From: Jimgerdemannia flammicorona | Lineage: Eukaryota | Length of the DNA stretch: 36,778 nucleotides | Assembly: GCA_003990765.1 (NCBI GenBank) | Contig: RBNJ01000201.1 | Location: forward strand, 1 to 36,778 | Direction of reading: 5' to 3' | Shown: piece after piece, positions 2,631-35,033 of the stretch | How the letters are laid out: each line of letters opens with the position of its first letter | Numbering within the stretch: the stretch's first letter is position 1 | Notes under the pieces: generated by a model | Seen by the model: the letters and a program-made list of their open reading frames with translations, nothing else | The model's database searches: none | Told to the model about the DNA's origin: nothing | Translations under genes and position numbers: made by a program

Positions 2631-3095
2631 AATGTTCTTGTGTGTTCGAGTCTTATATCATATCATTGATTTGGCCATAGGACAGGGTAGCAACCATTTC
2701 GCTGGTAGTGACTTGGAGGTGGGGAATAAAGGTATTGTACTCATAGAAGAGTTCTCAATGTTTGCGGGCGATGAGCTTCTGGTGTTGAGACATCTGGGTA
2801 ATGTCTATATCATGGTGGTGTTCGACCATATCTTCCAGGAGGCAGCCAATCTAGTAGTAGCTTGAGATTTGTTCGATTCAGTGGGCCTCGCTAAGCATGT
2901 TCAGGGCGTTCCATCGGGCTTCCACGAAGTAGAGGGGTGCCAGGCTATGGATATTCATGAGGGGCAGAGGGGGTGTAGCTCAGTTAATAATGGCATTCCA
3001 AATGTCAGCACGGATGCGGTTGTAGATCTTAGTGATCATGTTTGTGTATTTGGAAGTTGTGGTTGTTGTTTGTTTTGGTTCTCTGATTCGACACA
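2631..3095 (-). pseudogene. Inverted, mutated and internally deleted copy of the 335-925 ORF
   Basis: 2631-2957 is the reverse complement of ~340-660. It carries CGA>TGA and CAG>TAG stops, extends N-terminally (MCRIREPKQ...) and has a TATA-like box near 3108-3115. Confidence 0.85.
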
Positions 3096-3289
3096 TCTTG
3101 GTGCTCGGTATATATGCATTTGGTCCTGATTGATAAGATTCTGTTTGTGTAAATCTTATATTCTATGACTTTGTATTGACTTAGCTTTGTACTCTGTGAC
3201 TTTAGTTTGACTCAGCTTCGTGATCAAGCAGGTGATTTCCAGATTTGTTCAGAGGTCATGTGTGATTTCAGTGGCTTGGAGGTTGTACG

Positions 3290-5040
3290 CTTACACTTCT
3301 ATATTATTATAAGTAATTTTCAAATACTTCTCATCTTTATTTAATTGCTTTATTTTGTTAAAGACCAGATTAAGACTATTATTTAGATCTTTTCTAATAA
3401 CTTTATTCTTATCTAGCATATAATTAATTTACTTATATATTATCTTATCTTGAATATTAAACAAATATATCTTATATATAAGTACTAAGATAATATATTT
3501 TACAAATTTGTTAATCTAAATAGAGTATATAAATATTTTGCACTTAATCATAACTATAATGAGTATTTGTTAGTAGTTATTGACTAATGAATTTCCTTTA
3601 TTATTTTATCAATTTGGTATTTTTATTATAATAATTTCTCTCTAGTTTAGCTTGGACTAAATGTTCTTTATATCTCTTTGATAAGTTCTTGACCTTTTTC
3701 TTTTATAAGCTTTAAATTGCAAGTCATTCTATAACTATTAATAGATATTATATAAATCAGTCTAAGAACTTATAATTTGAATATATAAGATTAGCTGATA
3801 TTATAACTTATAGAATACATTATATTTGAGAGTACATAATTTATTATCTTCTTTTAGATCAGCCAAAAGTTATAGTAGACAGACTTATAGCTCATTTTTA
3901 CTAGTAAAAAGATAATTAATTGAGTTATATAATTAATATTTTTGATTGAGCTAGATAATCTATATACTTTAATATAATTCAAAAGAAAGTTCTTTATAAT
4001 AGTAGTAATACTCTAGTTGATTACCATTTTAGTTTTTCACTTAGACATTTTTTTTTAATATTATTATAAAGTTATGAGAGAAGACTATTTTTTAGCAAAT
4101 GATCTTATATATTCTCAAAATGAGATTGACTGATTCTCAGCATACTCAAATAGATTTTTTGGCAAAGAGATATATTATGATCTCAACAGTATAATATTCT
4201 TTTATTAATGTAAACTTTCTTCTTAAAATAGTAATTAGTACTTATAGATTTACCATTTACATATAATCTTAAGTTGAGCTATCAAAAGATATCTTGTTCT
4301 GACTTGAAAAGAGCTTAAAAAACCTCACACATCTCAGCAAATCCTTCCTTAGAAACTTTGGAAGAACAACTATAACTACAGCTCACTTTTAAGAACTTTA
4401 TTACTTTTTCATATTTAGTCATCATAACTATATAATATATTTTATCTTCAGTTTGTCTGATTTTGTAAAATTTCTTTTACATAGTGTATTATATAGTATA
4501 TTAAAAATATATAAGATTACTCCTATATATATCTCATTACTCTTCTGATATTTTTCTCTTTTTTCTTGATTTTTGAAAAGTATTTGATGATGCTAATTTC
4601 TTATGTTTTTTTTCTAATTCTTGTTAGTCTCATTCAAAAGTATTATCTCCAAGACTAATATTTAATTTTTGATAAATCTCATAAGTAATTCTTTCCTTAT
4701 TTAAATGTTCTTGAATAGCTTTGGTATCAGTTATTTTAAAGACATAAGGGGCAATTTTCTCACCTTGCTCTTGTTTCAAAATACTTCTAATGGTACTATA
4801 ATTTTTCAGCTCTATAGTGAATTTGATGTAAACTAGTTTCATGTTTATATATTTATATAGGAATAGTCTTGTGTACATATATTATCCTTAACATTTTCAT
4901 CTCTCAATAAAGCCGCGCAGCTAACCTCTCCAACCTTTTTCTTCTCAAGTCTCTCCTCTACCATCTTTTCTGCCACTTTCTCTGCCATCCTTACTATTTT
5001 TCTAGAATCCTCCCATCCTAACCCCACTCTTTTTATCACG
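3290..5040. mobile_element. Highly AT-rich degenerate repeat/TE relic
   Basis: Extreme AT richness, no CpG seen by eye from ~3295 to ~4910, and stop-riddled Lys/Glu-rich minus-strand frames. Family not identifiable. Confidence 0.5.
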
Positions 5041-12700: not shown

Positions 12701-15700
12701 ATAACCTGGAGATATTTAAACTCAATATTTAACGGTGTACTACCAAAACGAAAAAGGAGAGGAAAAGCCACTCCAGTTACTCACGATGTTGAAATGCTCT
12801 CCAAGATGGGCCCAAACATTGGACCACTCCAGGCGAATACGGCCCATGTTGTAATATGAAATCTCGACCAATTTCTGCAAGCTGAACATGCGAGGATGTT
12901 CCAACAAGGCTGAGGACGTAATTTCTTCCCAAGACACCTCGCACAGTGCTCGAACAAAATCAACAATAGCAGGCTTAATTATTTTGTTGCATGCGAACGG
13001 GGAAGAATTAATAACAGGTAAATTAGGATAGCTTCGAACAAAATATCCCAAAGATACTGCCAAGCAAAACGACCAAGGAAGGAACATACCCCGGTCAGAT
13101 TCACCGTTGATGTGAAAAGTTTATCCACAATCAAGATGACTTGATGGGAGTTACTCGCACTGGCCACGTCTTCCGCGAACGTCTATGTAAGAGTAGCAAA
13201 TGAAGATATCTCTCTCAATATTTGAAGCCAACTCACGCACCGGAAGGGAACATATATGTATGTACATCACACCTGTGTATTTTGCCGAGACGGTCTCTTA
13301 TTTGAAATGATTGTAGGCTGTCGTCTCACACTTTCGAGAGAGTTCTTTTGGCTGTTGAAGTTGAGATATTAGGTTAAAGAAAAACCTTATGTACTCGGTT
13401 ATGATAATTAATCTTGACCAAACATACCCAGCCTGTCTTCGCGTGCTCCAAACATCGGGAACGACACCCTGATCCAGGCCGTTGGTAATCAGCTGGAATC
13501 GCTCTAGCTGGCTCACGCACGTCAACACTTCTTTCCAAGATCCTTTAAGATAGCTGCCGTCGGCTGACGACGCAATATCTAATAGCGTCTTGATAGCCTC
13601 AATGTTTTTAAACTTCATCTCACCGAGGTTTGACAGAAAGGTAAACTTGGTCAAGGTAGTCACAAAGGCGTCTCGCTGGAGGTCCATATCTTCCGATTGC
13701 ACCATGTGGAACAAGCATATGACACGAATTGCAAGCTTAAACCCCTCCAGACACAGATTCACCGTGTCGCTATCATCAGACTCCTGCAAAGGGCCGGAAA
13801 TTCCAGCAAGGAATGCCATCCAAGAAACCTCAAACATTGGGCGCACATGTTCAATGTGCGAAGCGCTGTAAAAGGTGATGCTGTTAACAGTGGCTGCTCC
13901 CCGACGGTTTTTGCTACGCAGCATGCTCTTGAATAACGCCTCTGTTTTGGATCCCATCTCCTCAGTCACAGCTTGCTGAGCGTCACGCTTCGTATCCCTT
14001 CCCAGACCAACACTAACAAGCGCGTTTTGCAGACTGGCAATATTTAACTGCCCCAGCGGCCCCAGCCCTGAAGAGTTTGATATAATCGTAGCACCTGCGG
14101 CAGCCTCCACTTCATCCTTCATCTTGATTTCGTTTTCGTTGATCTCATCGTAAATAGACTCTAATAATTCTTCTGGAAGATCAGCATTATCGTTGATCCC
14201 ACGATTGTTTTTGATAAATTCTGATTTTGTCATGCGCTTCTTGACCTGTCGATTGTGAAGATCGGTATTCAGCATGATTACGGAGTAAGCCAGAACATAC
14301 GCAGTGTCTGTCATGAAGAATGGTATACAAGTTAATAAAATGCATGATTAGACTTTACGACGAAGTAATCTATCAAGATACACTTTACCAGCATTGGCGA
14401 AGGCTGCCGGATTGCCATTCACATAGCGTTCAGCGAATTTCAACATGAATCGATCAATTTTCTGTGCCTCGCCAGGTAACCTGAAAGACTGCAGGAATTG
14501 TCTCAGGGCGTCGGTAAACTTCATGTCGAGGAAAACCATCTGGTCAACGAACGCGTGCATGATGCTAACGTTCTCTTGTTCACTAGTGGAAATAAAACAT
14601 CACAAAAAACAAGTGATGTGTTAAAGACGGTGAAGACGTTAACAAACACTCCATCAATATCATATCACCACCACCAAAAATGGGCTTCCCATTGCATTAA
14701 TATCACATCATTTCTTTCCCTTTACTCGCATTTACCTACCCTTCACCCAAATATTCGCCAATCATAGCTTTACTCAAACCCTCGGTCGTGAGCAAAAACT
14801 TGGCGACATCTATCGGCTCCATACTTTTAATGAATCCTCCGCTTAAAAGGTATTGAATACCCTTCTTCGGTTTCCAGTTAAATTTGCGAATGCCTTCCTG
14901 CAGCATCTGCTTTCGATGCTTCAAATTCTCAAACTGCTCAGGATCGTCAAGACCAGCTGAGCGGCTGTCCGTGCCCGTCACAACCGAATAGGTAGAAGAC
15001 GACGGAGAAAAGTGATGATTGCTGGAATTGCTGTGGGTCGTCAACTGCTCGTGTACACCTCCGTTGTTCAAATTGGCGAAATCCTCACTATCACGCGGGG
15101 TACCTGAAACGACGCTGTCCTCAACATCCCCGCTGTTCGTAGGAAGGCTCACGGCTCCCTTGTTGTACCACGCTACAAGCGAACGCAGCACCGAAACGAG
15201 ACATTCGAGCGATTTGGCTTTCAGCGCGAACTCGGTTGGTGGGTGTGATGACGTAGTGTGCCTATCGGTCGTCAACACAGAATCAGTAGTAAGGGATGGT
15301 GGTATGACAACAATGGAGGACGCCACGCTTGTTAAAGATGTATCGGATGTGTTGACTGTGGATGAGGAATACGGGCTCGATGCAGTGGATGAAGGGTTTG
15401 AGCCTGAATCTGTTGCTTCCTTAGTTGTGGGCATGGCGGTATATGTCGTAGTGATCTTCGATAACACATTCACAAGGCTGGATGAATTCGATGGCAGTAA
15501 CAGGTTATCAGCAAGTTGTCAGACAATACCACATGTCGCACGACATAGATTTACAATGTATAGACAAACCGCTCGTAGATATTGTCCAGTGCTTCCTTGT
15601 CACAGTCGTAGTTCAGATACATCTCTACCAACGTCTGTGGATCGCTACAAATCCGTAAAACAACCTTCAAGAGCGAGTGCTTCTGTTGGAATGAGGCAGT

Positions 15701-18277
15701 GCGCATCTCGAGGATTGGAAGAAAAATTTCGTTGAAGAAAACCTCGATCTCTTTCTGATCGACAGATATCGTTCCACATGTAATAGTGCATAGATCGAAT
15801 TGGAGGTGCATGAAGGAGTTAGAGGCCAAATCTGCAGAGAAATACAAAATATTTCCCCCTCTGTATGTATTTTTTCTCTTTCATTCAAAAAGAGAAAGAA
15901 AAAAAAGGGAAAGATCGGCCCCATTTACAAAGACACTTCAGGTAAGCCGACAATATTCTACGCACCTTCAAAAACATTCTCAGTCCCTGCATAACCTTCC
16001 AAAAGATTTCAAGGCTAATGTCAAACACCTGAGGTACGACAGACACAGCGTTCCGACTCAAGCTTAGGCACAAGTATTGCTTCACAGCTTGAATGAAAGG
16101 CGTAGACTGAATGCCGCCTTGGGGAGGACCATCGGGCGAGCCGGTTGAGGTGAGAACAACGAAGGGGGATGTAAAAACTTGCAAATGCGAGGTCAGGATT
16201 GTGAGCACGAGGTGCAGGGAAAGGAGCTTTGAGCGCATCGAGTACGATTTTAGATCAGCAGTTCTATTTGTTTTTGATCATTGCATATGGTGAGATATTA
16301 ATCAGGGTATAAGGCGGTCTCTCGGTTCTTCAATAGTACCTACCCTTCCATAGAAATGGGTTTCATCGACAGCTTGCATAAGGCTCGAAGCACTAGGAAA
16401 GCATCCTTGACATATAAATCCGCTTGCGTATCATATTCCATTCGCTCGAGGGTTGCGTTGTCAAAAGATTTGCGGTTTTCGAAGGATTTTCTGCAATGCA
16501 CATTTTTCAAACAGAATGCGCGTTTAGAAAATAACAATCTTGAAGATAGATGCATTTTTAACCGCCCTCCCCTTCCTTCCTCTTCCTATTAGCCCCCTTT
16601 TCACCGCGCATTCTTTCACCACACGTATCCAATTCTCTTATCCACGCGGTTCAAGAACGAACACAAAACGAATAAACAAGAAACGGCAAGGAATAATAAT
16701 TCATACTGATGCCATTCAGTAGTATATATCGATACGTACAGGGTAAGCGGATCGCTCTGATTTTTTGGCTCCGTCGCCCCCGTCGCGACCAACGTCTTCA
16801 CACTCTCTCTCCGGTCTGTATTCGATGACTCCCCGCCATTTCCGTTCACATGTGTCACTTCCACACTCTCAAATGACTCCTCTACTTCAGCTACCTGCTG
16901 AGTCTTCCCGAAATCTTCGTCCGCATCTTCCTCAGTTCCGTTCAAAGATGTCGCAGATATAGGTAATCTAGGTGATTTAAGTGATCTAGGTGATTTAGGT
17001 GATTTTAGTGAGGAGGCCGAGTCAGCCGCTTCGTCCGTAAATGCTTGTTGCATAGTATCTACAAAATCCTCCACTGCCCCTTCCTGCCCATTTTCCTCCG
17101 CTGCCTCCTGCCGCGCGGCGTTGAACTCCTCCACAATTTTTTCCTCCAACGATTTTCTTTCCTCAACAACTACCGTCAACTCCGTTGCCAACTCTGCCGC
17201 CACAGCTGATCCTGCGACTTTCTGCGCGCTACTAGTCAGAGATGCTGACGACTCGGAGCCCGCTGGCGACCGTGTGGGTCGAGCGCCAACTTTGACGCGC
17301 CCAAATACCTGGTGAACCATCTGCGTGAGTGTCGCCTGCGCAATAGTCTGGTTTGCTGGGTTCCGTGATAACAAGAAAATGTTGTAGCATGTGCGCACGG
17401 CCTTAAGCAAACTCGACTGATGGATCGGGGTGCTGGAGGAGAGGACCGCAGCCAGTAGGGCCTTGATTATCTGAAGTTGAACCTTCTCGTCTGTATTCTC
17501 ACCCACAAAGCTGTCACATATCACGTCTACCACCGTCTCCATTAGCGCGAAAGCATGGCTCGTTGCCGTCGTGTCGCTATTCTCCCCGCTCGACGAACGA
17601 ACGCCAGCATCAGCGTCCACGTCGACGAGATAATTGTAGGAGATGAGCTTGCCTAGGCAGTCTAGTGAGATGACCATGACGTTGGCGGATCCGGTCTCAA
17701 TAGCTAATCGTAGCGGTGTGAAAATTAAGGATGATCTTGATCGACGAGTTTAAAATTGTGTCAATTGGGATTGTTCTAAAAGATATACAGCGGTGCATAT
17801 TCATAGAAGACCGACGATGATGGAGATCGAGACAAAACGGCGTTGGGACAGGACTCTTACCGTGTCGTGCCGTCCGGGATCGCGTCACCCTTTTTAAAAA
17901 CCACTGCATATTGAATTGTGAAAGAGAGAGGTTGGAGGAAGTGCAATGAGTGTGGACGAAGATAATGGAATCGACTAGCCCAAGGGACGACTGAATATTT
18001 AGTGTTGCTTGTAGGGCAGATCCACTTGTGCACCCTCTCTGTCTTCGATGTGACTCTCTTCAAGACACGTGCTACAACGTCCAGGCAGCCCTCTGTACCG
18101 TCCAAAAGCTCGAGACGAACTGAATATAGGATTCGAGCACGTACATAGGGCCTTGTCTATGCCGTCCTTCAACAGCTTGTTCTTCCTCGCATCCCTACTG
18201 GCTCCGATCTTCTCCAGGGCGTTGATGATGAAAACATTGCTTGAGGAGGCGGAGGTTGGAAGTGGTTGCGTTGACAT
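9708..18277 (-). CDS. SEC7: Large ARF guanine-nucleotide exchange factor Sec7/BIG1 (multi-exon)
   Basis: DCB region ([20 protein letters not shown]), HUS box (YLNYDCD), Sec7 domain with the glutamic finger [14 protein letters not shown] (14348-14560) and [12 protein letters not shown], and HDS motifs ([32 protein letters not shown]). GT-AG introns; stop TGA at 9708-9710. Confidence 0.96.
11970..12150. repeat. Intronic low-complexity tract (GATT, TGTGTTTT, TTTTA repeats)
   Basis: Visible simple repeats inside a SEC7 intron. Confidence 0.85.
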
Positions 18278-18442: not shown

Positions 18443-19709
18443 ATGCCAGCAGAAACCCCTTCAGACACCCCTTCCTCTCGCTTACGCAATCGCATCAGGG
18501 AGGACACCCCATCATTAGTCCAGCCAAACCCCAGTCGAAGGAACGACACTCCCAAACCTCAGTCGACACAGCTCACCCAGAATCAAGTAACGCCTAAACC
18601 GCAAATCACACCCAAATCGATTCTTGACTCTAGCGACAACCATGAAGAGGGTAACTCCGATGACGAAGCTCCTGAGGCCGTTTCCATCTCGTCCAGTAAG
18701 ATAGAGGCGTTGCAGGCGGCTCAGCTGGAGAAGGAATTCTCCCAAAAGTAAGTGTATGATATGACATCCATCTTGGAGTCGTATGTCGAATAAACCCTTA
18801 TATATTCACTGTTAAGCAATTAATTAAAAAAAAAAAAAAAAAAAAATCACAGGCTCCAAGCGGCCCAGAAAGAAAAACGGCGCCAACGCGACACGAAGCT
18901 CAAAGAACAGAAAGAAGGCTCGAAAAGATCCAAAAAGACGACCTTTGAGAACAAGGATGCGGATACTCAAGAGACGTCCATTAAAAGAAAGAATCAGCCT
19001 GAAAAGCCACCACAAACTGAACACGACGTTTCGAACACGTTAGTGGCTGACCAAATTTCTGAAACCCGAGGCGAGGTTGATAAGGATGGGACCGAGATGC
19101 CGTTCAAAAAACCCGTATTACCGACTTTATTGCCATTGGATATGCTAGAAGATGTGGCGAAAGAGGAGGCCGAGCAGCGAAAGAAGCGGAAACATTTGCG
19201 GCTGGATGATTTCGATGCGATAGCCAAAGAGGAGGAGGAGGAAGGGCGAGAGACGAAAAATAAACTGAAGCGGAAAAAGACGAAGACGGAGGGCAAGAAG
19301 GTTGGGTGAGTTTAGGTGTTGTAGGGCCTCTTGTATGAATGCCTTGTCGGATGATTCTAATACTACTTCGTTCTTATTTGGTAAAATATGCCTGCAATAC
19401 GCATTGTCATTTTTCAGACCGTTCACAGTGGTCATCTTGGACAAACCATCACCGAAACCAGCCCCAGTTGCATCACACATTCAGAATTTCCGAGAAAGCC
19501 ATTTCTTTGGAAATGGTCGGGTACCAAGAAAGGATGGTGAGTTACTTTTTGCGTTTTCTACACTTGGCACACCACGTCTTGTAATATGTTGTGTTCAACA
19601 GACACTTATTTTACATACAGCTATCTTGAATATCAGTCAAAAAAATCGCGGGGCAGCGGCGGTATTCCGACGCCAAAACCCGGCTGGCCCGCCGCTAAAA
19701 AAAATATAG
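18443..19709 (+). CDS. U3 snoRNA-associated nucleolar protein (Bud21/Utp16-like); exons 18443-18747, 18853-19305, 19418-19536, 19621-19709
   Basis: SDDEAPEAVS motif, KEKRRQRDTKLKEQK, LPTLLPLDML and FRESHFFG..R.PR. Canonical splice sites keep the frame. Confidence 0.7.
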
Positions 19710-19986
19710 TAATGATGAGGTTAGCATGCAGCAATGTATTTTTAATAGACATGATTCGTGACAAATACGGATAGCAGTCAATACCGACTGCATGGCGCAG
19801 CGGGTGGTGGCTGAATGATAATTAGATATTTTTGGCACAAAATGAATCGTGTTGGGCTCCTAGCTGAACAAGTGGTCCAATCAGCGCCTTCCCCAGACGC
19901 CGAGGCTCCATAAAGTCCCTTTCTTCGTGCTGCCAACTCTCTAGGTCCTCCTTTGTTCGTTCTATACATATACCGGAGCCCACACC

Positions 19987-21158
19987 ATGTCCTGCACAAA
20001 CTTCGTCGACCTGACAGCTATACCGGACATGGTGACTCCAACCCAAACAAACTCAACAACAGAGACCCTCACCACCATGTCCATGGACCCTCAAACTCCC
20101 ATCGCTCCTGCCCCTTCCACCTCCACAACCTCCACTGTCCCGTCCGTGACCCAGGTCACTGGTGGCAGGAAGAGGAAGGCTTCCCTGGATGATAAGGACG
20201 CGAAGACGAGGGAGCGGTGAGTTGATTTTTGCACTGCTAATACTCGTTGAACCGACGATTTACATCGTGTACCTGTACCGTGCTAGAGAAACTGGTTGCC
20301 TGACTCAAATATTTATTTCTTAACTCCAGAATCTTGCGCAACCGTGCCGCCGCCCAAGATTCGCGGGACAAGAAGCGCCGCTACGTCGCCGACCTCGAGG
20401 ATGCCAACAACGACCTCAAAACAGACAACGAGCGTCTGTCCAAGCGCGTGAAAGTGGTAGAGGAAGAGAACGCCATTCTCTCTGCGCGGCTGGAATCCAT
20501 CGCCGCCCAACTCTCACAAATCCAAAGCCAGCTCCGGTTCAACGAAATCACTCAGTTCTTGTTTGACGGTTTTCGCGAGTCAGCAGCACTCGCGAGCGTA
20601 GTTGGCAGGGACCGCAACGCCCGCTCTCATGTTCGTGGTAATGATAAACACGAAGAGCCTGCATTGCGTTCCCAGCCTTCTATTTCCCAGCAGCGGAAGC
20701 CATCGGATCGGAACAAAGTGATGACGTCGACCACCGCGAGCTTGGCCAATCGACACCGGCCTCCTCGCTTTACACATCCGAAGACGACGACCTTACGGAT
20801 TCTCCTTCCTCCCCCGAAGCGTCGTCTTCGTCGTCCTCGTGCTCCGACGTGTCGCCTTCCCCCCTCCTCTCGTCCGAGGCTGACCCAAAACTCAAGCTCG
20901 AGCCAGGCCTTCAGGTCGATGCTGATTTTCTTCTCGATGATCTTCTTGACTGGGAAGGCCAGCAACCTGTTCTACCCCTCGTCCTTTTTGAGGATGTCCC
21001 CGTATGATTACATGTCGTCTGGCCGCTCGGAGGAGGAAATTGCCACCGCCGATCGCGCGCTTGCCCTGTTCGCAAGAACTCTCGAACGAGGCAACCCCAG
21101 GATGAACCGGAGGTCCATCCTCAAATGGAGAGACGAATTCGCTAAGCGCCCACCTTGA
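19987..21158 (+). CDS. HAC1: UPR bZIP transcription factor HAC1/XBP1-like. Spliceosomal intron 20217-20329. Unspliced form ends at 21158 (352 aa); IRE1-spliced form ends at 21007 (266 aa)
   Basis: GRKRK...KTRERILRNRAAAQDSRDKKRRYVADLE basic region and leucine zipper, followed by ESAAL, the XBP1-type junction motif, and two IRE1 hairpins. Confidence 0.9.
20584..20690 (+). other. Predicted IRE1-excised unconventional intron (107 nt)
   Basis: Hairpin 1 TCGCGAGT-CAG|CAGC-ACTCGCGA (20573-20595) and hairpin 2 TTCC-CAG|CAGC-GGAA (20684-20698). Removal shifts the frame into an open acidic tail. Confidence 0.85.
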
Positions 21159-21261
21159 CAACCGAACCTGGAGTTCGCCTATCGTTCGCATACTATCGTT
21201 GTACGTTTTGCATATATATGTAGATAGTAGTTTTTTTTTTTTCCGGTACTTATCATTTCAA

Positions 21262-21364
21262 ATCCCCTTCGAACCCCCCCCCTGCAACCCCACCCTCCTC
21301 GAACCCCACCCCCTGCAACCCCACCCTCCTCGAACCCCATCCCCCTCGAACTCCACCCCCTTCC
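21262..21364 (+). repeat. C-rich tandem repeats (CCCCTGCAACCCCACCCTCCTCGAACCCCA-like) downstream of the bZIP stop
   Basis: Two near-perfect ~31-bp units plus partial copies. Confidence 0.8.
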
Positions 21365-21930
21365 CATTTAATATGTTTGCATTTTTGCGTCTTGCGCCTT
21401 TCCGCAGATTGCCTTATGGACATTGGACCGTTTCCTATGCTTGTTACTTGCGTTCGTTCCAAGTCTTACACTTTTTGTTTCCGTTTCACCGTGTCACCAT
21501 CTACGGATCGTCCTGTCCTTCAGTAGAAATCGGATTCTAAAGGGAGTTGCCGAGATGAAAATACGTACGCAATATTGCTAGCTGTGCTCGTGTTGGGTTC
21601 GTCCATATGCAGTTGCAGTGCTGAGTAATAAATCATTGAATTAGTAGTAATAATTTATCTGGTTGATTGCCTGGCGAAGCATATACTGCTTTTCATATTA
21701 GCATTGGACAAATATTTGCGTTTCTATTCATATGTAGATATTTTCGAATACGACAGGGATGAGCAGAAAGAGGCATAGGATTTATAACAGATTCACCGTG
21801 TTGTCCTACATTTGATCGGCTATCCACGATCCCCCTGTATTCATTCCATCTCCGCCAGTCATCCAGATCACGATACGGAAGTGTTTTCTTGATTTAACCA
21901 TCGCTAACACTTAACCCCCTTAAGTCTGTA

Positions 21931-23925: not shown

Positions 23926-25056
23926 TCACCTTCTCGGTCTTGGCTTGACCACATAAGGATTAGGATGCTTCCTCGTCTTCCCACCCTTCGCCAACACGCC
24001 CCACGGGCTTCTCGGATCCTTGTTACCCTTCGACTTGCCCCTACCACCGCCGTGCGGATGGTCCACGGCGTTCATAGCCACACCTCTCACCGATGGCCTC
24101 CACCCCATCCACCTTCTCCTCCCCGCCTTTCCCAAGGTCTCGTGTTGGTGGTCCGGATTCGATACTGACCCGATGGTCGCGCAGGCCTCGACAGGGACGC
24201 GACGGGTTTCGCCGCTCGACAGACGCAGTTGGGCGTAGCCGGTTGTGCCCGTCTGGATCAGCTGCGCGTACGTACCGGCGGAGCGGGCCATGATGGCGGG
24301 ACCTCCGCGGCGCAGGCCGATGTTGTGCACGGTCATACCGACGGGGATCATGCGCAGCGGCATGCAGTTGCCGATGTCGACAGAGACGGTGCGGGTGATG
24401 TCGCTGTTGTCGTTACCATCACCACCATCACCATCACCAGTTCCGCCGATGACACCAGCAATGTCACCCACCCCTTCACTACGGTAGCTTCTCACCCGAT
24501 CCCCGGGCGCCAAGTTGTGGGGCGCGACAATGTAGCTTAGTTCACTATTGGCATCATTCTTGAGCAGTGCGATCCAGGCAGTCCTCCCCGGGTCGTATTC
24601 GAGGCGCTGCACGGTATGTGTACCTGGTCCAAAGCGATTCCAGTCAATAATACGAATGCGGCGCTTGTGCCCGCCGCCGCGATGGCGGATAGTAATATAG
24701 CCGTGGTTGTTGCGGCCGCCCTTGGAGCGCTTGGCCTTGGTCAGCATACGGATTGGCTTGCCCTTGTGAAGATGGTCGCGGGGCACGCGTTTGAGCCAGC
24801 GTTTGCCTGGCGTGGTAGGCTTTTTCGTCTTAAACTGATTGGAGGGGCGGGCGGGGCGGTCGGGTGGGGGAGGGGGGACGGGGTCGACGAGGGAGTTGGG
24901 TGTGGTAATGCGGGCGGGGACGGACTTTATGGCATATGTGCGGACCAAGGGCGTGAAAGGCCTACAAGACTGAAAAACAGGTGGGGATCTTGTGATCTGG
25001 GCGAGAGTTGTCCGCACGGCCTGCAGGGGCCGGGACAGCAAGTTGAGGCGTAGCAT
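23926..25056 (-). CDS. RML2: Mitochondrial ribosomal protein uL2m (single exon, with presequence)
   Basis: GGRNNHGYITIRHRGGGHKRR, EYDPGRTAWIAL and RGVAMNAVDHPHGGG motifs; Arg/Ser-rich N-terminal presequence from ATG 25056. Confidence 0.96.
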   Translation of the reverse strand: MLRLNLLSRPLQAVRTTLAQITRSPPVFQSCRPFTPLVRTYAIKSVPARITTPNSLVDPVPPPPPDRPARPSNQFKTKKPTTPGKRWLKRVPRDHLHKGKPIRMLTKAKRSKGGRNNHGYITIRHRGGGHKRRIRIIDWNRFGPGTHTVQRLEYDPGRTAWIALLKNDANSELSYIVAPHNLAPGDRVRSYRSEGVGDIAGVIGGTGDGDGGDGNDNSDITRTVSVDIGNCMPLRMIPVGMTVHNIGLRRGGPAIMARSAGTYAQLIQTGTTGYAQLRLSSGETRRVPVEACATIGSVSNPDHQHETLGKAGRRRWMGWRPSVRGVAMNAVDHPHGGGRGKSKGNKDPRSPWGVLAKGGKTRKHPNPYVVKPRPRR

Positions 25057-25113
25057 GGTGAAGAAGCCACCCTCGACGCCATCCAAATAAGAGGGATCAA
25101 CACAACATTGTCG

Positions 25114-25121
25114 TGACGTCA
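25114..25121. promoter_or_regulatory. CRE/ATF palindrome TGACGTCA in a 134-bp divergent promoter (uL2m / PEN-2)
   Basis: GTGACGTCAC lies centrally between ATGs at 25056 and 25191. Confidence 0.5.
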
Positions 25122-25190
25122 CCTCTCAACCCACCAAATCACCTTAGACTGAGGCAAGGATTCGCTCTCGACTTCACATTCATCATCATA

Positions 25191-25752: not shown

Positions 25753-25827
<75 letters not shown>

Positions 25828-28929: not shown

Positions 28930-29550
28930 TTGACAGAGATAATCTGAACTTTGATTTTTTTTAAAAAAAAATTAGCTAATAACTTCAGTTAGCTTTATAA
29001 AATTTAAATAACTTTATTATATTTGTTAGTCTTTAGTAAATGAAGTAAAAAATATATATAATATTAATTAATATTATATCAAATAGTGCTTTTACTTTTA
29101 TATTATATTTTTAAAATAATTTACTAGTTTAGCTGAAATAGTTTAATAATAAAATTTTAGTAATATTAATTATCTTATATTTAAATTTAGCTATAAATAA
29201 TATAAAAAATAAGTTAAAAAAGTAAAGAAATTTAAAATCTTATTTATAAGATAATATTATTTATTATATCATTATTAATTTTAAAATTAATAATAAATAT
29301 TATAAAATACTATAAAGTTGCTATATAATTTTAGATAAATAAATAAAGTTAAATATAATAAACTAAATAATAATAATAATAAGATATTGATAATACTTAT
29401 TTTTCTATAATCTATAAGACCAGATATTCTAAAAATAGTTAATTTTTTTTTAAAAGCTGAAAAAATAATAAATAAATAAATAAATAATAACAATAAGTTT
29501 AGTTTTTCTAGACAACTATTTATTCTTGATGCTGAAGTTTAATTATTCCT
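28930..29550. mobile_element. AT-rich island, probable degenerate repeat/TE relic
   Basis: Abrupt, very AT-rich and TpA-rich block with no CpG seen, between two GC-rich genes. No TIR or TSD found. Confidence 0.4.
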
Positions 29551-29835
29551 GCCTAACACATTCACATGCTCTACGGTCATAGCTGTCATTAGCCACAAAT
29601 GTTAGTATGGTAGTGATTGCAAAGTATACGTCTCAATGTAAGAATAGTGCCGCCACATATTTACATTCATGACATAATGATAATGTATGTATTTGTAGGT
29701 GAAAACCTGCGACAATACATGTTTGTGGGTGCGGGTTTCAAAATCGATTGTCCTCATTGTTGCAACACAACTACGGACACCCTGTTCTCCGAATGAATGG
29801 TGTTAGCAGAATCAATCAACGTACCCAATCCCACA

Positions 29836-32800
29836 TCACTCCCTGTACACCTCCCTAACCATAAATGCAGCGACATCCAAGTCCTGCCAATAGTTCATGT
29901 GAACATTCAATGCGCTCAGGTACGCGTTCTCGAGGATCCCTTCTTGCAGACAGAAATCAACGCGACCATTTATGTTGAGGGCGCGTAGGCGTTGGGCACC
30001 ACGGGTGTACGCCGATATCGACAGTAGCGGCTCGGGGTGCGCCGGGGGAATGTGATGAGCGTTGTCTGCGCCATCGTTGCTGTCGTGAGAGGACGACGGA
30101 TCCGAATTCGACCGAGAACGTGTTGCGGACTTGGACGAGCCATCAGGTTGCGGAGACAAGGATCGCGGTTGAGTCTGCTGTGACGCGGCTGGCGCATCGG
30201 GTTCCTTCTTGATTTTAAAATTACGCATGAAGAGATGGACGGCAAGCCCGGTTCGGAGGGATTCGTACATGGCACCGGCGCGCGTGGCGATATCGGAGCC
30301 GACGTTGTAGCCAGCATCGAGGACACCTTTCAAGCCACCTTTGCTGTAGGGGATCAGTTCTGGTTTGAGGTTGATTGTGTAATGACGGGCGATGAGAGGT
30401 TCTAGACGATAGGCGACTGGGTCTGCCTTGTGAAAGATGTTGTAAAGGTTTTGAACGGCAGGATAGCAGAAGGGGGTAGGATCTGAGGCTGAAGAACCCG
30501 AGGATGCAGAGGTGTTGTCAGAGATAGTCAGGAGTTTTCTGGCGCCAATTTTGCATCCCTTGAGCAACAGGAGGACGCCGATGGGCGAGCCAACGGCGAA
30601 GAAATTGAGAACGGGGAAGTCCAAGATAGGTAACTTGGAATTTTGGGCCTGATTGGGCACCGCAAAGAAGCTCGATGTCGGTGCCTGACCGTGGGTTTGA
30701 TGTTTGGTAACAGCAGCATCTTCGGACGATGTAAGGGGCTGAAGTATAAGGATGTCGAACGCTAAGACAGACTGTCAAGAGCGAACATTCAGGTATGTAA
30801 TAGAGAAAAGAGAGAGCACCGATCGCGTTGGTTAGATTATAAACTTTCCAGGCAGCTGGATTCCTACTAAAAAGACAACTTTTTTTTTTTTTTTTTTTTT
30901 TTTTTCCTGTAGAATCTGAAGAAAAGATGGTGTACCCCTAGCGAGTGACCATAAATGGAGACTTTGCCATTTTGCGAGAAATGTGGATTACGCTCGACAA
31001 AGAGATGGTAAACGCGATTGATCTCCTTTGCAACGATGGACATCATCTGCTCGCGGTATTTTGGTGTCATATAAAGCGGAACTACATGATGCACGTTCGA
31101 GGAATGCGTAAGCAAGATATGTCGATGGTCTCAGCAAAACCATAGCCATAATTTGAGTATAATCTACGTCTCTATCACGCCTCCCACGGCAATCAAATAA
31201 ATCACTTACCGTCCAGCAGAACATCGCTGACGATCATCCTGATATTCGGCACCCCCTCCAGTGTGATCTCGTCCAGCGTCGGCTGGCCGTCCTCCAGCTC
31301 GGGCATACCCATGTCGCGTTCGACATTGTCTTCGTCGGCTGCCATGCCGAAGGTGATGTCCTGGCGCCAGAGAATTGGTAGGACTTGGATGCCGTTCGAG
31401 CGCGAAGGGTTGCCAATGTGCGTGGCGACAGAGGAGAAGGCCGACTTCATTGTACGGCGGAGAACATTCACGTCTGTGAGGTTGGGAGCCAGAAATATAA
31501 GGATTATGATTAAGTGACACAACGAGGAAATATATCCATACTTATCTAGCAAAGGAGAGGCCAACGTCAGCGCATTTACTCACCATGGATGAAGTTTTGG
31601 CCCAAACGATCTGCAAATTTTTGGCCAATACTAGTGCGCAAAAGTAAAAAAAAAAAAAACCAGGAGCAACGCAAACCAAACAATGTGTCATTGAACGCGA
31701 GCCTCCTAAAATGCAATCTTGCAACACAGATTAACTCGTCAAGTAGTATTTTCTACTCACCCATGGATAACAAACACCAAATGATCTACCTTGCGTTCGT
31801 TTTCCTCACTCTCCTCATTTGCGTAATCCTCCAGCTCTCGCCTTGTCTGCGTTGTCTCATCATCCTCCTTGTCCCCCACAACGTTGGCGACGATATCCTC
31901 AGCGTCGCCTTTCTCCCCCTTCTCCCCCTTTTGCTGCTTGATAGCCTCGTCAACGGTCGGCTGCTTCGATTTCGAGAACGGAGAGGTTGTTGCGGGGGCG
32001 ACTGACTTTTCTACCTCGGGATACCCGCGCAGAAGGCGGGTGCCGCCGAGGTTGCTGTTATTGGTGAGGCGGGTGAAAATGTGTTTGGTGACCTTGCTTG
32101 ACAAGGAGTCCCTGCGAGGATTATTACAATGAAGTGAGAATTGGATTCCAGATGGCGTTCGAGATTGAGACTAGAAATATATAGTTTTTTTACTGGGACG
32201 AATTTTCTCATCAACACGTACGAGAGCAGCCAAGCAGTTGTTGCCCCGGTGTAGATGACGTATTGCTCCAGATAACGACCCAGCAAATTCCACTGTTTCT
32301 CAAGCTTTTTCTCCTCTATTACAGGGGACGCCTGGTCATGGGACCCGGCGCTAGTAGCGGAATCGGCAGGAGGATGTGGAGTCACAGGTCCGGGGGTGCC
32401 AGAGATCTTGGGAGTTGTGGGCCTGGGAGGACTGGATCCCAACGCCACCGCTGCGGTATCTGACGACGTCGAGTGAGTCAGGTCTTCTGTGATGACTGGA
32501 TCTGGAATCCACGGGCGGTATTTGCTGTCGACATTAAGAAATAGTTCGTTGTAGGGTCAGAATGGAATTTGATGTGATTTAATGATATGTTGATCGTGTT
32601 AAATTTTTGGAGATCTACCAGTAACCAAGTTCAATCTGCTCGGACAGATTTTCTTCGCAGGGAATCCATTTAGATGAATCGCCCTGCATGAACCAGGTAG
32701 CCCTCCGAACCTCGTATACGGGCCCGTCCCAAAAGACTGGTGTGATGGTGCGCTGGGTGACGTCCACCTCGAACAGGTAGTCTTCGTTTACGGCCACCTT

Positions 32801-33420: not shown

Positions 33421-35033
33421 ATGTCCCGCAATCACCTCAAAAATGTCTCCACCGAGCATCCGATCCACCCAGGCCCCGCGAAAAAGCCCCGTCGAGAATC
33501 ACCAAACCAACTCCACCTCAATCCCCGCTACGAACACCCAACATTTGTGACCCCTTTCACCACCGCCTTCACATCCGCAACCCATTTCTCAGACCCCACT
33601 ACAAACGCCCACGTCGGCCCCCATCCCTTTGTTCATGCCGTCCTACCCAATATTATCGATCCCGCCTTCCTCGAGCAGGTGAAGCAGGCCCTCCTAAAGG
33701 AGCAGTATTACCACAAGTCCAATGACCTGTACGAGTTCTACCAGTCCGAGGATTTCAAGATCACCACATCGCCCTGCCTCGCCGAATTGCGCGACGCCAT
33801 ATACTCGCCGCAGTTTGTGGACACCATGTCGCGACTGACGGGGCTCGAGCTCGATCCCACAAAGATCGACCTCTCGGCACATCAGTACCATCACAAGGGC
33901 TACCTGCTATGTCACGACGATGATATCAAGGATGAAAAAAAAGGGACGGGGAGGCGGATTGCCTTCATCATCTACTTGGTGGACGAGGATTGGAGCGAGG
34001 CCGATGGCGGAGCTCTGGAATTATTCGCGGCGTAAGCTTGATCTTTTATTGTGGAAACAAATCCCCCTCCCCCTTCGCGTCGTGTGCCTCAACATATCCC
34101 ACCCTACTCTACAAAAATCTTCACCCATAAAGCGACAGCGACGGCTACCCCACGAAAATCACTCGCTCGCTCGTCCCGAAATGGAACCAAATGGCCTTTT
34201 TCAAGCTTTCTGGCACCTCCTATCACCAAGTCGCCGAGGTCCTCACGCCAAGCAGGATCCGCCTCTCCATCTCGGGCTGGTTCCATGGCCCCCTCAAACG
34301 CCCACTCCTCACAACCCAGACCCTCCCCATTCCCCCCACCGATCTCTCCCTCTCCGACTATATCCACTCCCAATACCTCGCCCCGACCTCCTTCTCCAAC
34401 ATTCGTGACATCTTCCTCGAGCGATCCTCCATCGAGCTTCAAAAGTTTCTCCGCCCTGAAATTTACGATCAGCTCCTCCACGAATTCGACGACGGCACTG
34501 CTCAATGGGACCCAACACCCATCGGTCCGGCCTTCGTCCGTCGCTACCGGCGCCTCCGACCCGCGCCCCCCACCTCGACCCTCTCCCGCCTCCACACTTT
34601 CTTTACTTCCTCCGCCTTTGCCACCTTTCTCACCACAGTCACCAACCTCCGCCCGACGGCCCATAATTCCGAGGTCCGATGCTTCGCCCACGGCGACTAC
34701 ACGCTCCTGCACGACCATGCGATTGAGCGCGAGGGCTTGGATGTCGTGTTCGCCATGCCTCGCGTGCCTGGGGAAGAGGAGGCTGGATGGGACGAGCGGT
34801 GGGGGGGCCGTACGCACTATGTGGCCGATGCCGAGAATTTGCTGACAATGGTGCCAACAGCAAACACGCTGAGCGTTGTGCTGAGGGACGAGGGCGTGCA
34901 GCGCTTTGTGAAGTATGTTAATTGTGAGACGAAAACAAAGGAGGGGGAGAAGATGGCGGAGAGGAGAGAGATCAGCTTGATATTTTATGAGGACCCGGAG
35001 GGAGGTGGAGGTGGAGATGAAGATCCCAAGTGA
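33421..35033 (+). CDS. TPA1: Prolyl 3-hydroxylase Tpa1/OGFOD1/Ofd1 (2OG-Fe(II) oxygenase); exons 33421-34031, 34133-35033
   Basis: KSNDLYEFYQSED, YLLCHDD (HxD), RRIAFIIYLV, GGALELF, SYHQVAEV and RLSISGWFH motifs, plus a C-terminal Ofd1-type domain (GDYTLLHD). Confidence 0.93.

Follow-up and report, generated by a model that had tools for sequence, protein, structure and literature searches.

The stretch of DNA considered here, called the window in the following, lies on contig RBNJ01000201.1 (assembly GCA_003990765.1) of the root-associated fungus Jimgerdemannia flammicorona (Endogonales, Mucoromycota) and comprises positions 1-36,778 of the forward strand. It contains a gene for a bZIP protein whose coding sequence holds two hairpins that resemble the cleavage sites of IRE1. 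The question raised by this locus is whether the 107 nucleotides (nt) between the two cut sites constitute an unconventional intron, as in the HAC1 and XBP1 messenger RNAs, and what their removal would do to the encoded protein. The answer given below builds on the structure and transcription of the gene, the structure and covariation of the RNA, the logic of the reading frames, and the use of homologous sites as junctions in relatives, all of which are observed. On these grounds we consider it very likely that the region is the regulatory core of a HAC1/XBP1 ortholog with an IRE1 intron.

Direct reading of 19600-21800 gives a two-exon gene on the plus strand, which starts with ATG at 19987 and contains one GT-AG intron. 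Its parts are the following:

19987..20216, plus strand: exon 1, from ATG 19987, 76 codons and two further bases, in which the basic region begins
20217..20329, plus strand: ordinary spliceosomal intron of 113 nt, GTGAGT...CAG, skipped exactly by the contigs of RNA runs X1, X2 and X3
20330..20583, plus strand: the part of exon 2 before the 5' IRE1 cut, encoding the basic region and the leucine zipper of the bZIP domain (matched by Pfam at ca 20337-20465)
20584..20690, plus strand: predicted unconventional (IRE1/tRNA-ligase) intron of 107 nt with non-GT-AG ends, the cuts falling after the third loop base
20691..21007, plus strand: 3' exon in the spliced reading, a 104-residue acidic tail with its stop TGA at 21005-21007
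21008..21158, plus strand: tail read solely in the unspliced frame, W (21126-21128)...K-R-P-P (Pro-Pro 21150-21155), with its stop TGA at 21156-21158

The RNA data for this species comprise four runs holding the gene, all in the form of assembled contigs, which drop rare variants. In three of these (X1, X2 and X3) the contigs skip the 113-nt intron exactly, at 20216-20328/20217-20329 and with GT..AG ends, which means that the gene is transcribed and confirms the ordinary intron.

The identity of the gene follows from its domain and its relatives. On 20331-20582, the Pfam model bZIP_2 scores 37.6 bits (cut-off 22.3, E=2.3e-9) and bZIP_1 scores 36.3 bits (cut-off 27.6, E=6.2e-9), and the bZIP domain lies directly upstream of the predicted intron, with the 5' cut 118 nt past the end of the Pfam match. 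The sole 100% database match to the exon-2 read-through (P0001) is the 352-residue 'hypothetical protein BC936DRAFT_143682' of Jimgerdemannia flammicorona, which is exactly exon 1 followed by the unspliced reading of exon 2. The translation of exon 1 equals the N-terminus of this protein save one residue, Ala in the window and Val in the database; the contigs of X1 and X2 have a C>T change at 20111 that gives the Val. Since the public model is the unspliced read-through, the intron has been missed by gene callers, as the original prediction had expected. The second match is an Endogone sp. protein of 342 residues with 67% identity, which keeps the Ser-Ala-Ala of the 5' site and the Ser-Gln-Gln-Arg of the 3' site, 35 codons apart. 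Taken from the protein alone, this implies that the Endogone intron would also be 107 nt long, if the codon phases are equal. Further matches are Glomeromycotina proteins, several of which carry the source name 'bZIP transcription factor HacA' (Rhizophagus, R. clarus, Gigaspora), and after these come short Mucorales proteins of 159-232 residues.

The RNA elements around the predicted intron are located as follows:

20527..20570, plus strand: 5' strand of an exon-exon zipper helix, in coding sequence, mean pair probability 0.90 (ensemble of 20500-20770)
20572..20596, plus strand: 5' IRE1 hairpin, loop CAGCAGC at 20581-20587, predicted cut 20583/20584
20683..20699, plus strand: 3' IRE1 hairpin, loop CAGCAGC at 20688-20694, predicted cut 20690/20691
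20699..20746, plus strand: 3' strand of the zipper helix, pairing with 20527-20570

The stem of the 5' hairpin consists of 8 perfect base pairs (bp) between 20573-20580 (TCGCGAGT) and 20588-20595 (ACTCGCGA), closing a 7-nt loop. A ninth pair, U.G 20572/20596, is possible, and the pair probabilities of this stem in the ensemble are 0.38-0.98. In the 3' hairpin, 20684-20687 (TTCC) pairs with 20695-20698 (GGAA), with a possible fifth pair, U.G 20683/20699. Both loops, together with the 8-bp and the 4-5-bp stem, had been described in the original prediction, and every position given there proved correct on direct reading. The conserved loop positions of IRE1 sites are -3, -1 and +3 relative to the cut, and both loops here, CAG|CAGC, bear C at the first of these and G at the other two. 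Three bases are described as conserved per IRE1 loop (PMC4891664). Compared with the human XBP1 string, GAGTCCGCAGCACTCAG, the 15-mer of the window at the 5' site differs by a single base, as had been claimed, and this base is the free N of the loop. The intron begins with CA and ends with AG, and wherever the junction is placed among the shared CAG/CAGC bases, the ends are neither GT-AG nor AT-AC.

The length of the intron is 3x35+2 nt (3n+2), such that its removal shifts the reading frame by +2. This point of the original prediction was borne out, and the shift opens a conserved acidic C-terminus. The predicted spliced protein has 266 residues, and its tail contains 23% D+E, vs 7% D+E and 20% K+R in the unspliced tail. 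The spliced tail carries the motif DFLLDDLLDWEGQQ, and the tails of the relatives, when spliced in silico, keep an LDDL[LF]DW-like motif. The acidic tail is predicted to act in activation. One segment is read in both frames:

20918..20954, plus strand: dual-coding core; the spliced frame yields an activation-type motif of acidic/hydrophobic character, DADFLLDDLLDW, and the unspliced frame yields MLIFFSMIFLTG (residues 274-285)

The same two-frame relation is found in the Glomeromycotina sequences.

The RNA around the intron is strongly structured. The segment 20540-20730 folds at -77.6 kcal/mol (z=-5.72, 0/200 shuffles), and its minimum free energy (MFE) structure shows the bifurcated shape that had been proposed; for 20500-20770 the value is -100 kcal/mol (z -4.47, 0/200 shuffles), and the MFE structure contains 43 exon-exon pairs. 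The pairing of 20555-20570 with 20699-20714 put forward earlier, with 14 of 16 positions paired (five of the pairs being G-U), turned out to be the inner part of a longer zipper duplex of 37 pairs. This duplex has a dG of -45.5 kcal/mol, vs -21.0 +/- 3.6 for the shuffles (z -6.8, reached by 0/200 shuffles). The interior of the intron, 20599-20682, forms a separate 27-bp helix. When the RNA is spliced in silico, it folds into one continuous hairpin, in which the suggested post-cleavage pairing of TTTCGC (20571-20576) with GCGGAA (20693-20698) is indeed used and closes a 9-nt loop. The exon helix, at ca 40 bp, is of unusual length, and the RNA represents an unusually clear case of the exon-zipper design.

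The comparison with relatives is based on metagenome contigs that were scanned with an alignment of the orthologs, which gave 14 loci. In two cases, one contig lacks exactly what lies between the two loops of another. In the locus L012, the hairpin loops CTG|CAGT and CTG|CAGC are 50 nt apart, and L013 equals L012 minus exactly these 50 nt, with 101/101 identical flanking columns. In L010, a Rhizophagus-like genomic contig, the loops are 188 nt apart, and L003 is without exactly that stretch. The junctions in these relatives are CTG|CAG, at loop position 3. The two pairs indicate that, in this fungal group, the counterparts of the window's loops serve as real junctions. The introns, ordered by length, are:

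L012: 50 nt, at the homologous loops
the window: 107 nt, predicted at the two loops
L005: 115 nt, predicted, homologous sites
L004 (identical to a Gigaspora margarita protein): 149 nt, predicted, homologous sites
L010: 188 nt, at the homologous loops
L001: 196 nt, predicted, homologous sites
L002: 199 nt, predicted, homologous sites
L008: 221 nt, predicted, homologous sites
L009: 299 nt, predicted, homologous sites
L006: 302 nt, predicted, homologous sites

With relatives spanning 50-302 nt, the 107 nt of the window are no length outlier; of the earlier statement that an unusually long intron had been overlooked, the overlooking thus stands and the unusual length does not. The HAC1 intron of S. 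cerevisiae has 252 nt. For yeast HAC1 introns in general, a range of 19-379 nt is given in PMC6222058.

When the unspliced sequences are spliced in silico at the homologous sites, 10/10 acquire an open acidic tail that bears the conserved motif, in the following forms:

L001 and L002: LDDLLDWNGEQ
L006, L008 and L009: LDDLFDWDGQQ
Glomeromycotina: DSFLDYDWSE
L012: a weaker form

The ortholog comparison that had been suggested as a check also supports the hairpins themselves. For the 5' hairpin, 11 aligned sequences with 7 distinct rows were used, and 90.5% of the cells are paired, vs 27-57% in controls with slid partners. Two of its pairs have compensatory changes (GC/AU; AU/CG/GC/UA), although they lie in coding sequence. 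The core of the 3' hairpin, TCCCNGCAGCGG, is invariant in 10/10 sequences, as are the loop and its two closing C-G pairs, with 84% of the cells paired and little variation across the alignment. Together with the bZIP domain, the HacA-named relatives and the junctions of the relatives' spliced contigs, these results support the proposal that the element is the switch of the unfolded protein response in an early-diverging fungus.

The zipper is strong also in Mucorales-like loci (L001, L006, L008 and L009, z -2.6 to -4.9). It is weak in L002 (z -1.7) and L012 (z -2.0), and it does not rise above shuffles in three Glomeromycotina loci (z -0.8 for L004, -0.9 for L005 and -1.4 for L010). It is therefore best described as a lineage-variable reinforcement, and the idea that an exon zipper is a universal part of such introns was rejected.

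Some individual features of the relatives should be mentioned here. The Mucorales-like contigs L001, L002, L006, L008 and L009 have the 5' loop CAGCACG, which is closed by U.G and has C instead of G at +3, and the standard 3' loop CTGCAGC. In L007 (591-640), the 5' hairpin is intact, and ...GGATTATG is joined directly to the normal start of the 3' exon (CAGCGG...). This join is non-GT-AG, lies 23 nt further downstream than the 5' cut usually does, and still leads into the acidic frame. Either an alternative product of cleavage and ligation or an artefact of the assembly may account for it. In L010 (1143-1215), a 73-nt piece with the ends GTAAG...CTAG lies inside the IRE1 intron. The piece is absent from L005, where both IRE1 hairpins are kept, and without it the unspliced frame ends early. 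One public R. irregularis 'HacA' model (P0009) has the same junction as would result from removing this piece. The piece could represent a species difference, or a spliceosomal intron that lies within the unconventional one.

It is important to consider also the observations that weigh against an IRE1 intron at this position. The 107 nt are retained in the dominant RNA-derived contigs, those of X1 (2370 nt) and X2 (394 nt), and the 20583-20691 joint is present in no contig of the four runs. The retention was not counted against splicing, because it is the major isoform that contigs preserve, and in the absence of stress an IRE1 intron is expected to stay in the transcript. The two root metatranscriptomes are evidence neither way, as their contigs break off at 20567 and 20553 and start again at 20693 and 20712, leaving the part in between uncovered. 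Furthermore, the spliced tail occurs in no predicted protein of a collection of 5.8 billion sequences (539 + 8 candidates, none accepted). The 3' stem is short (4-5 bp), its pair probability is modest (0.31-0.61), and its covariation is weak. Finally, RF04247, the Hac1/Xbp1 intron model, is the best Rfam family for the stretch and reaches only 19.3 bits (E=0.67), with a gathering threshold of 41, and none of eight related loci is matched by it at E <= 1. The aligned parts are only the zipper and the 5' hairpin, because the model, with its 72 positions, has no room for a 107-nt insert. The element is assigned to the biological class of IRE1-spliced bZIP mRNAs, rather than to the RF04247 model.

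A number of other explanations were considered. Both loops lie within an open reading frame, and with the 3' stem being so short, the hairpins might be products of chance in CAG-rich coding sequence (Ser-Ala-Ala and Ser-Gln-Gln codons) of an ordinary bZIP gene with one product. Loops of the type CNGCNGN on stems of at least 4 bp are expected ca 4 times per window by chance, both strands taken together; three are found on both strands of the 36.8-kb window, and the only two on the plus strand are those discussed here. However, a pair of such hairpins 15-400 nt apart appears anywhere in only 4.5% of 200 first-order Markov simulations, and chance is unable to explain the site right after the bZIP domain, the 37-bp exon helix (0/200 shuffles), the compensatory changes, the conserved second frame or the spliced contigs of the relatives. 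We consider this explanation extremely improbable. That the 107 nt are instead an alternative nuclear intron taken out by the spliceosome gains some plausibility from the GT..AG piece that is missing from L005 compared to L010, which makes spliceosomal processing possible in this region of the relatives. However, no placement of the junction has GT-AG or AT-AC ends, and the junctions of the relatives are CTG|CAG. If the loops were instead sites of IRE1-dependent decay, there would be no selection for a conserved downstream frame. Taken together, spliceosomal removal and decay are judged to be very unlikely.

A further scenario is that the structure and the alternative frame are inherited, and that the switch itself differs, with the cut sites being elsewhere, or with the 352-residue protein as the main product and splicing as a rare event. 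The RNA-derived contigs, which have the unspliced form only, agree with this, as do the conservation of the unspliced frame, open for 190 codons, in Endogone and Glomeromycotina, and the possibility of a different 5' junction in a relative raised by L007. On the other hand, it is only with both loops in use that all relatives show the acidic frame and its motif as conserved, and the spliced contigs of the relatives use exactly the homologous loops. We leave this scenario a small chance, and the removal of the 107 nt by IRE1 at the two loops is the reading that we retain.

From the above, we infer that cleavage by IRE1 and ligation take place in Jimgerdemannia flammicorona, in a stress-dependent manner. 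In the absence of stress, the cytoplasmic mRNA would keep the 107 nt and encode the 352-residue basic protein without the acidic tail. Upon endoplasmic reticulum (ER) stress, the RNase of IRE1 would cut after G20583 and G20690, that is, after the third position of the CAG|CAGC loops. Since the hairpins are predicted to sit on a three-way junction closed by the ca 40-bp exon-exon helix, the exon ends would stay together, and the intron, itself a stable helix, would leave. A tRNA-ligase-type enzyme would then join 20583 to 20691, and the joined RNA would refold to one continuous hairpin. The +2 shift would replace the basic tail by the 104-residue acidic one with the LDDL[LF]DW-type motif, giving the active 266-residue transcription factor.

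In this species, the unspliced frame is open far past the intron, to the TGA at 21156-21158, and it is conserved as protein in Endogonales and Glomeromycotina, and not in the Mucorales-like sequences. In the contigs of the latter, it stops within the intron, such that they have neither the hydrophobic patch nor the Pro-Pro-stop tail described here. Hydrophobicity in the unspliced protein is highest at residues 274-285, MLIFFSMIFLTG, which correspond to LIFSIAFWTMTG in Glomeromycotina. The top Kyte-Doolittle window (2.48) covers residues 274-284, which are not present in the spliced protein and lie 67 residues from the C-terminus; the spacer to the C-terminus is thus ca 67 residues here, and it is ca 59 in Glomeromycotina, where the hydrophobic segment of five sequences starts 71-73 residues before the C-terminus. 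All 7/7 aligned C-termini have W, K and PP without variation, and Pro-Pro-stop is found in all 15 database proteins that reach the C-terminus, with Pro and stop codons that vary between lineages. In the Endogone sp. ortholog, the last 11 residues are identical. It is important to note that the spliced frame has already stopped before the last 49 codons begin, and the conservation there can therefore not be a by-product of the other frame. The hydrophobic character of the patch, on the other hand, could in part be a side effect of a D/L/F-rich motif being read in another frame. The contigs of two root metatranscriptomes show a 3-nt deletion at 21014, which preserves the unspliced frame.

A tentative interpretation, to which we give somewhat less than an even chance, is that in Endogonales and Glomeromycotina the unspliced HAC1 is translated and that its product carries a co-translational ER-targeting device of the animal and plant type, which would keep the mRNA at the ER membrane for IRE1. 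The putative device would consist, and here we are equally hesitant, of the hydrophobic patch, a spacer of ca 60-70 residues, and the invariant W...K-x-Pro-Pro-stop, which would stall the terminating ribosome. Stalling at Pro-Pro-stop is suggested for this protein by analogy, from the motif alone, with a precedent in Selaginella. A homology between the unspliced tail and XBP1u was rejected, as the profile searches detected no sequence similarity, and the relation would be one of analogy only. In these searches, the profile of the unspliced tail gave nine matches among 1.84 billion proteins, namely seven Hac1u proteins of Glomeromycotina type and two unrelated repeats, none of them metazoan, and it gave no match in the PDB. 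If the interpretation is correct, nascent-chain targeting of an IRE1 substrate was present in early fungi and was later replaced, by short unspliced open reading frames (ORFs) in Mucorales and by RNA-based targeting and a translational block in yeasts. The hydrophobic patch and the Pro-Pro-stop tail thus bear on whether the co-translational targeting known from animals and plants is ancestral in fungi too.

The locus can be compared with the known systems. With metazoan XBP1 it shares the twin 7-nt loops, the cuts after loop position 3 (predicted here), the +2 shift, and the exon pairing that refolds after cleavage, and, like XBP1u, the unspliced protein has a hydrophobic stretch that is removed by splicing. 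It differs in the intron, 107 nt vs 26, in the exon helix of ca 40 bp, in that the unspliced protein exceeds the spliced one in length, and in that it ends with Pro-Pro-stop, whereas XBP1u has an arrest peptide. In XBP1u, the distance from HR2 to the stop is ca 50 codons and there is a translational pause (PMC11077094); here the distance is ca 67. The introns of XBP1 and Arabidopsis bZIP60 are 26 and 23 nt long, respectively (PMC11077094). As to plants, Selaginella moellendorffii SmbZIP50u, an ortholog of bZIP60, also ends with Pro-Pro-stop downstream of a hydrophobic segment, and this end has been shown to stall the ribosome (PMC11077094). Unlike the present case, that one is from a plant and has a short intron, and homology of the two tails is unlikely.

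Among fungi, a close case is the HAC1 of Rhizopus arrhizus (G6F37_009984), in which an unannotated non-canonical intron was found by RNA-seq (PMC10946435). This gene belongs to the same phylum and was likewise an unnamed bZIP gene with an IRE1-type intron missed by annotation. With the window, the Mucorales-like contigs share the core of the 3' hairpin and the motif of the spliced tail; in contrast to the window, the unspliced protein of Rhizopus arrhizus is short, with 149 residues. The same source describes an obvious Ire1 ortholog in Mucorales and a three-domain Trl1 in Rhizophagus, and it does not mention Endogonales (PMC10946435). It is the only prior description of a Mucoromycota HAC1 intron that we found in the literature. 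For Endogonales or Glomeromycotina, full-text searches of the literature brought up no prior description, and the survey by Hooks and Griffiths-Jones from 2011 may touch the phylum.

The HAC1 of S. cerevisiae resembles the present gene in its long IRE1/tRNA-ligase intron, the twin hairpins and the new C-terminus on splicing (PMC13703316). In that system, pairing between the intron and the 5' untranslated region (UTR) blocks translation, and an element in the 3' UTR targets the mRNA (PMC13703316). By contrast, there is no pairing above shuffles between the intron and the 5' region here, and the unspliced frame is conserved as protein. A translational block of the yeast type was rejected, as the duplex of 19880-19995 with the intron has a z of +0.72 and is equalled by 150/200 shuffles. 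The hacA of filamentous ascomycetes is similar in that a bZIP gene carries both a conventional and an IRE1 intron; the latter has 20-23 nt, and regulation takes place by a shift of the start site in the 5' UTR (PMC13703316). In Aspergillus hacA, the unspliced frame of the second exon is long and conserved (PMC13703316). Overall, this looks like the textbook mechanism in a new example, with an unspliced protein that looks nearer to the animal and plant versions than to those of yeasts.

As to the consequences, the public annotation can be corrected, since the 352-residue protein, the ortholog from Endogone and several of the 'HacA' models from Glomeromycotina represent forms that are unspliced or guessed. 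The mapping of HAC1 introns is extended to plant-symbiotic Mucoromycota, where culture-based stress experiments are hard, and the combination of two loops and a restored LDDL[LF]DW tail provides a rule for finding the sites across the group.

The surroundings of the gene are an ordinary nuclear gene neighbourhood. Neighbouring ORFs match the Sec7 and DCB domains of an Arf exchange factor of BIG/Sec7 type that is interrupted by introns, the N and C domains of ribosomal protein L2, a DDHD domain, and a 2OG oxygenase of Ofd1 type. The ORFs with these matches are located at:

13298-17677, minus strand
23926-25122, minus strand
29836-30660, minus strand
34191-35033, plus strand

Finally, some repeats and compositional features can be noted. 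A C-rich tandem repeat at 21264-21361 (period 16/31/47, consensus ca CCCCCTCGAACCCCA) lies ca 100 nt downstream of the unspliced stop and is adjoined by a T-run at 21233-21243; the X1 transcript contig extends to at least 21242. The window starts with a 14-nt tandem repeat (1-231) and contains a 73-nt T-run (25755-25827), and two AT-rich stretches of a kilobase, with a GC content of 0.25-0.27, lie within 3001-5000 and 29001-30000.

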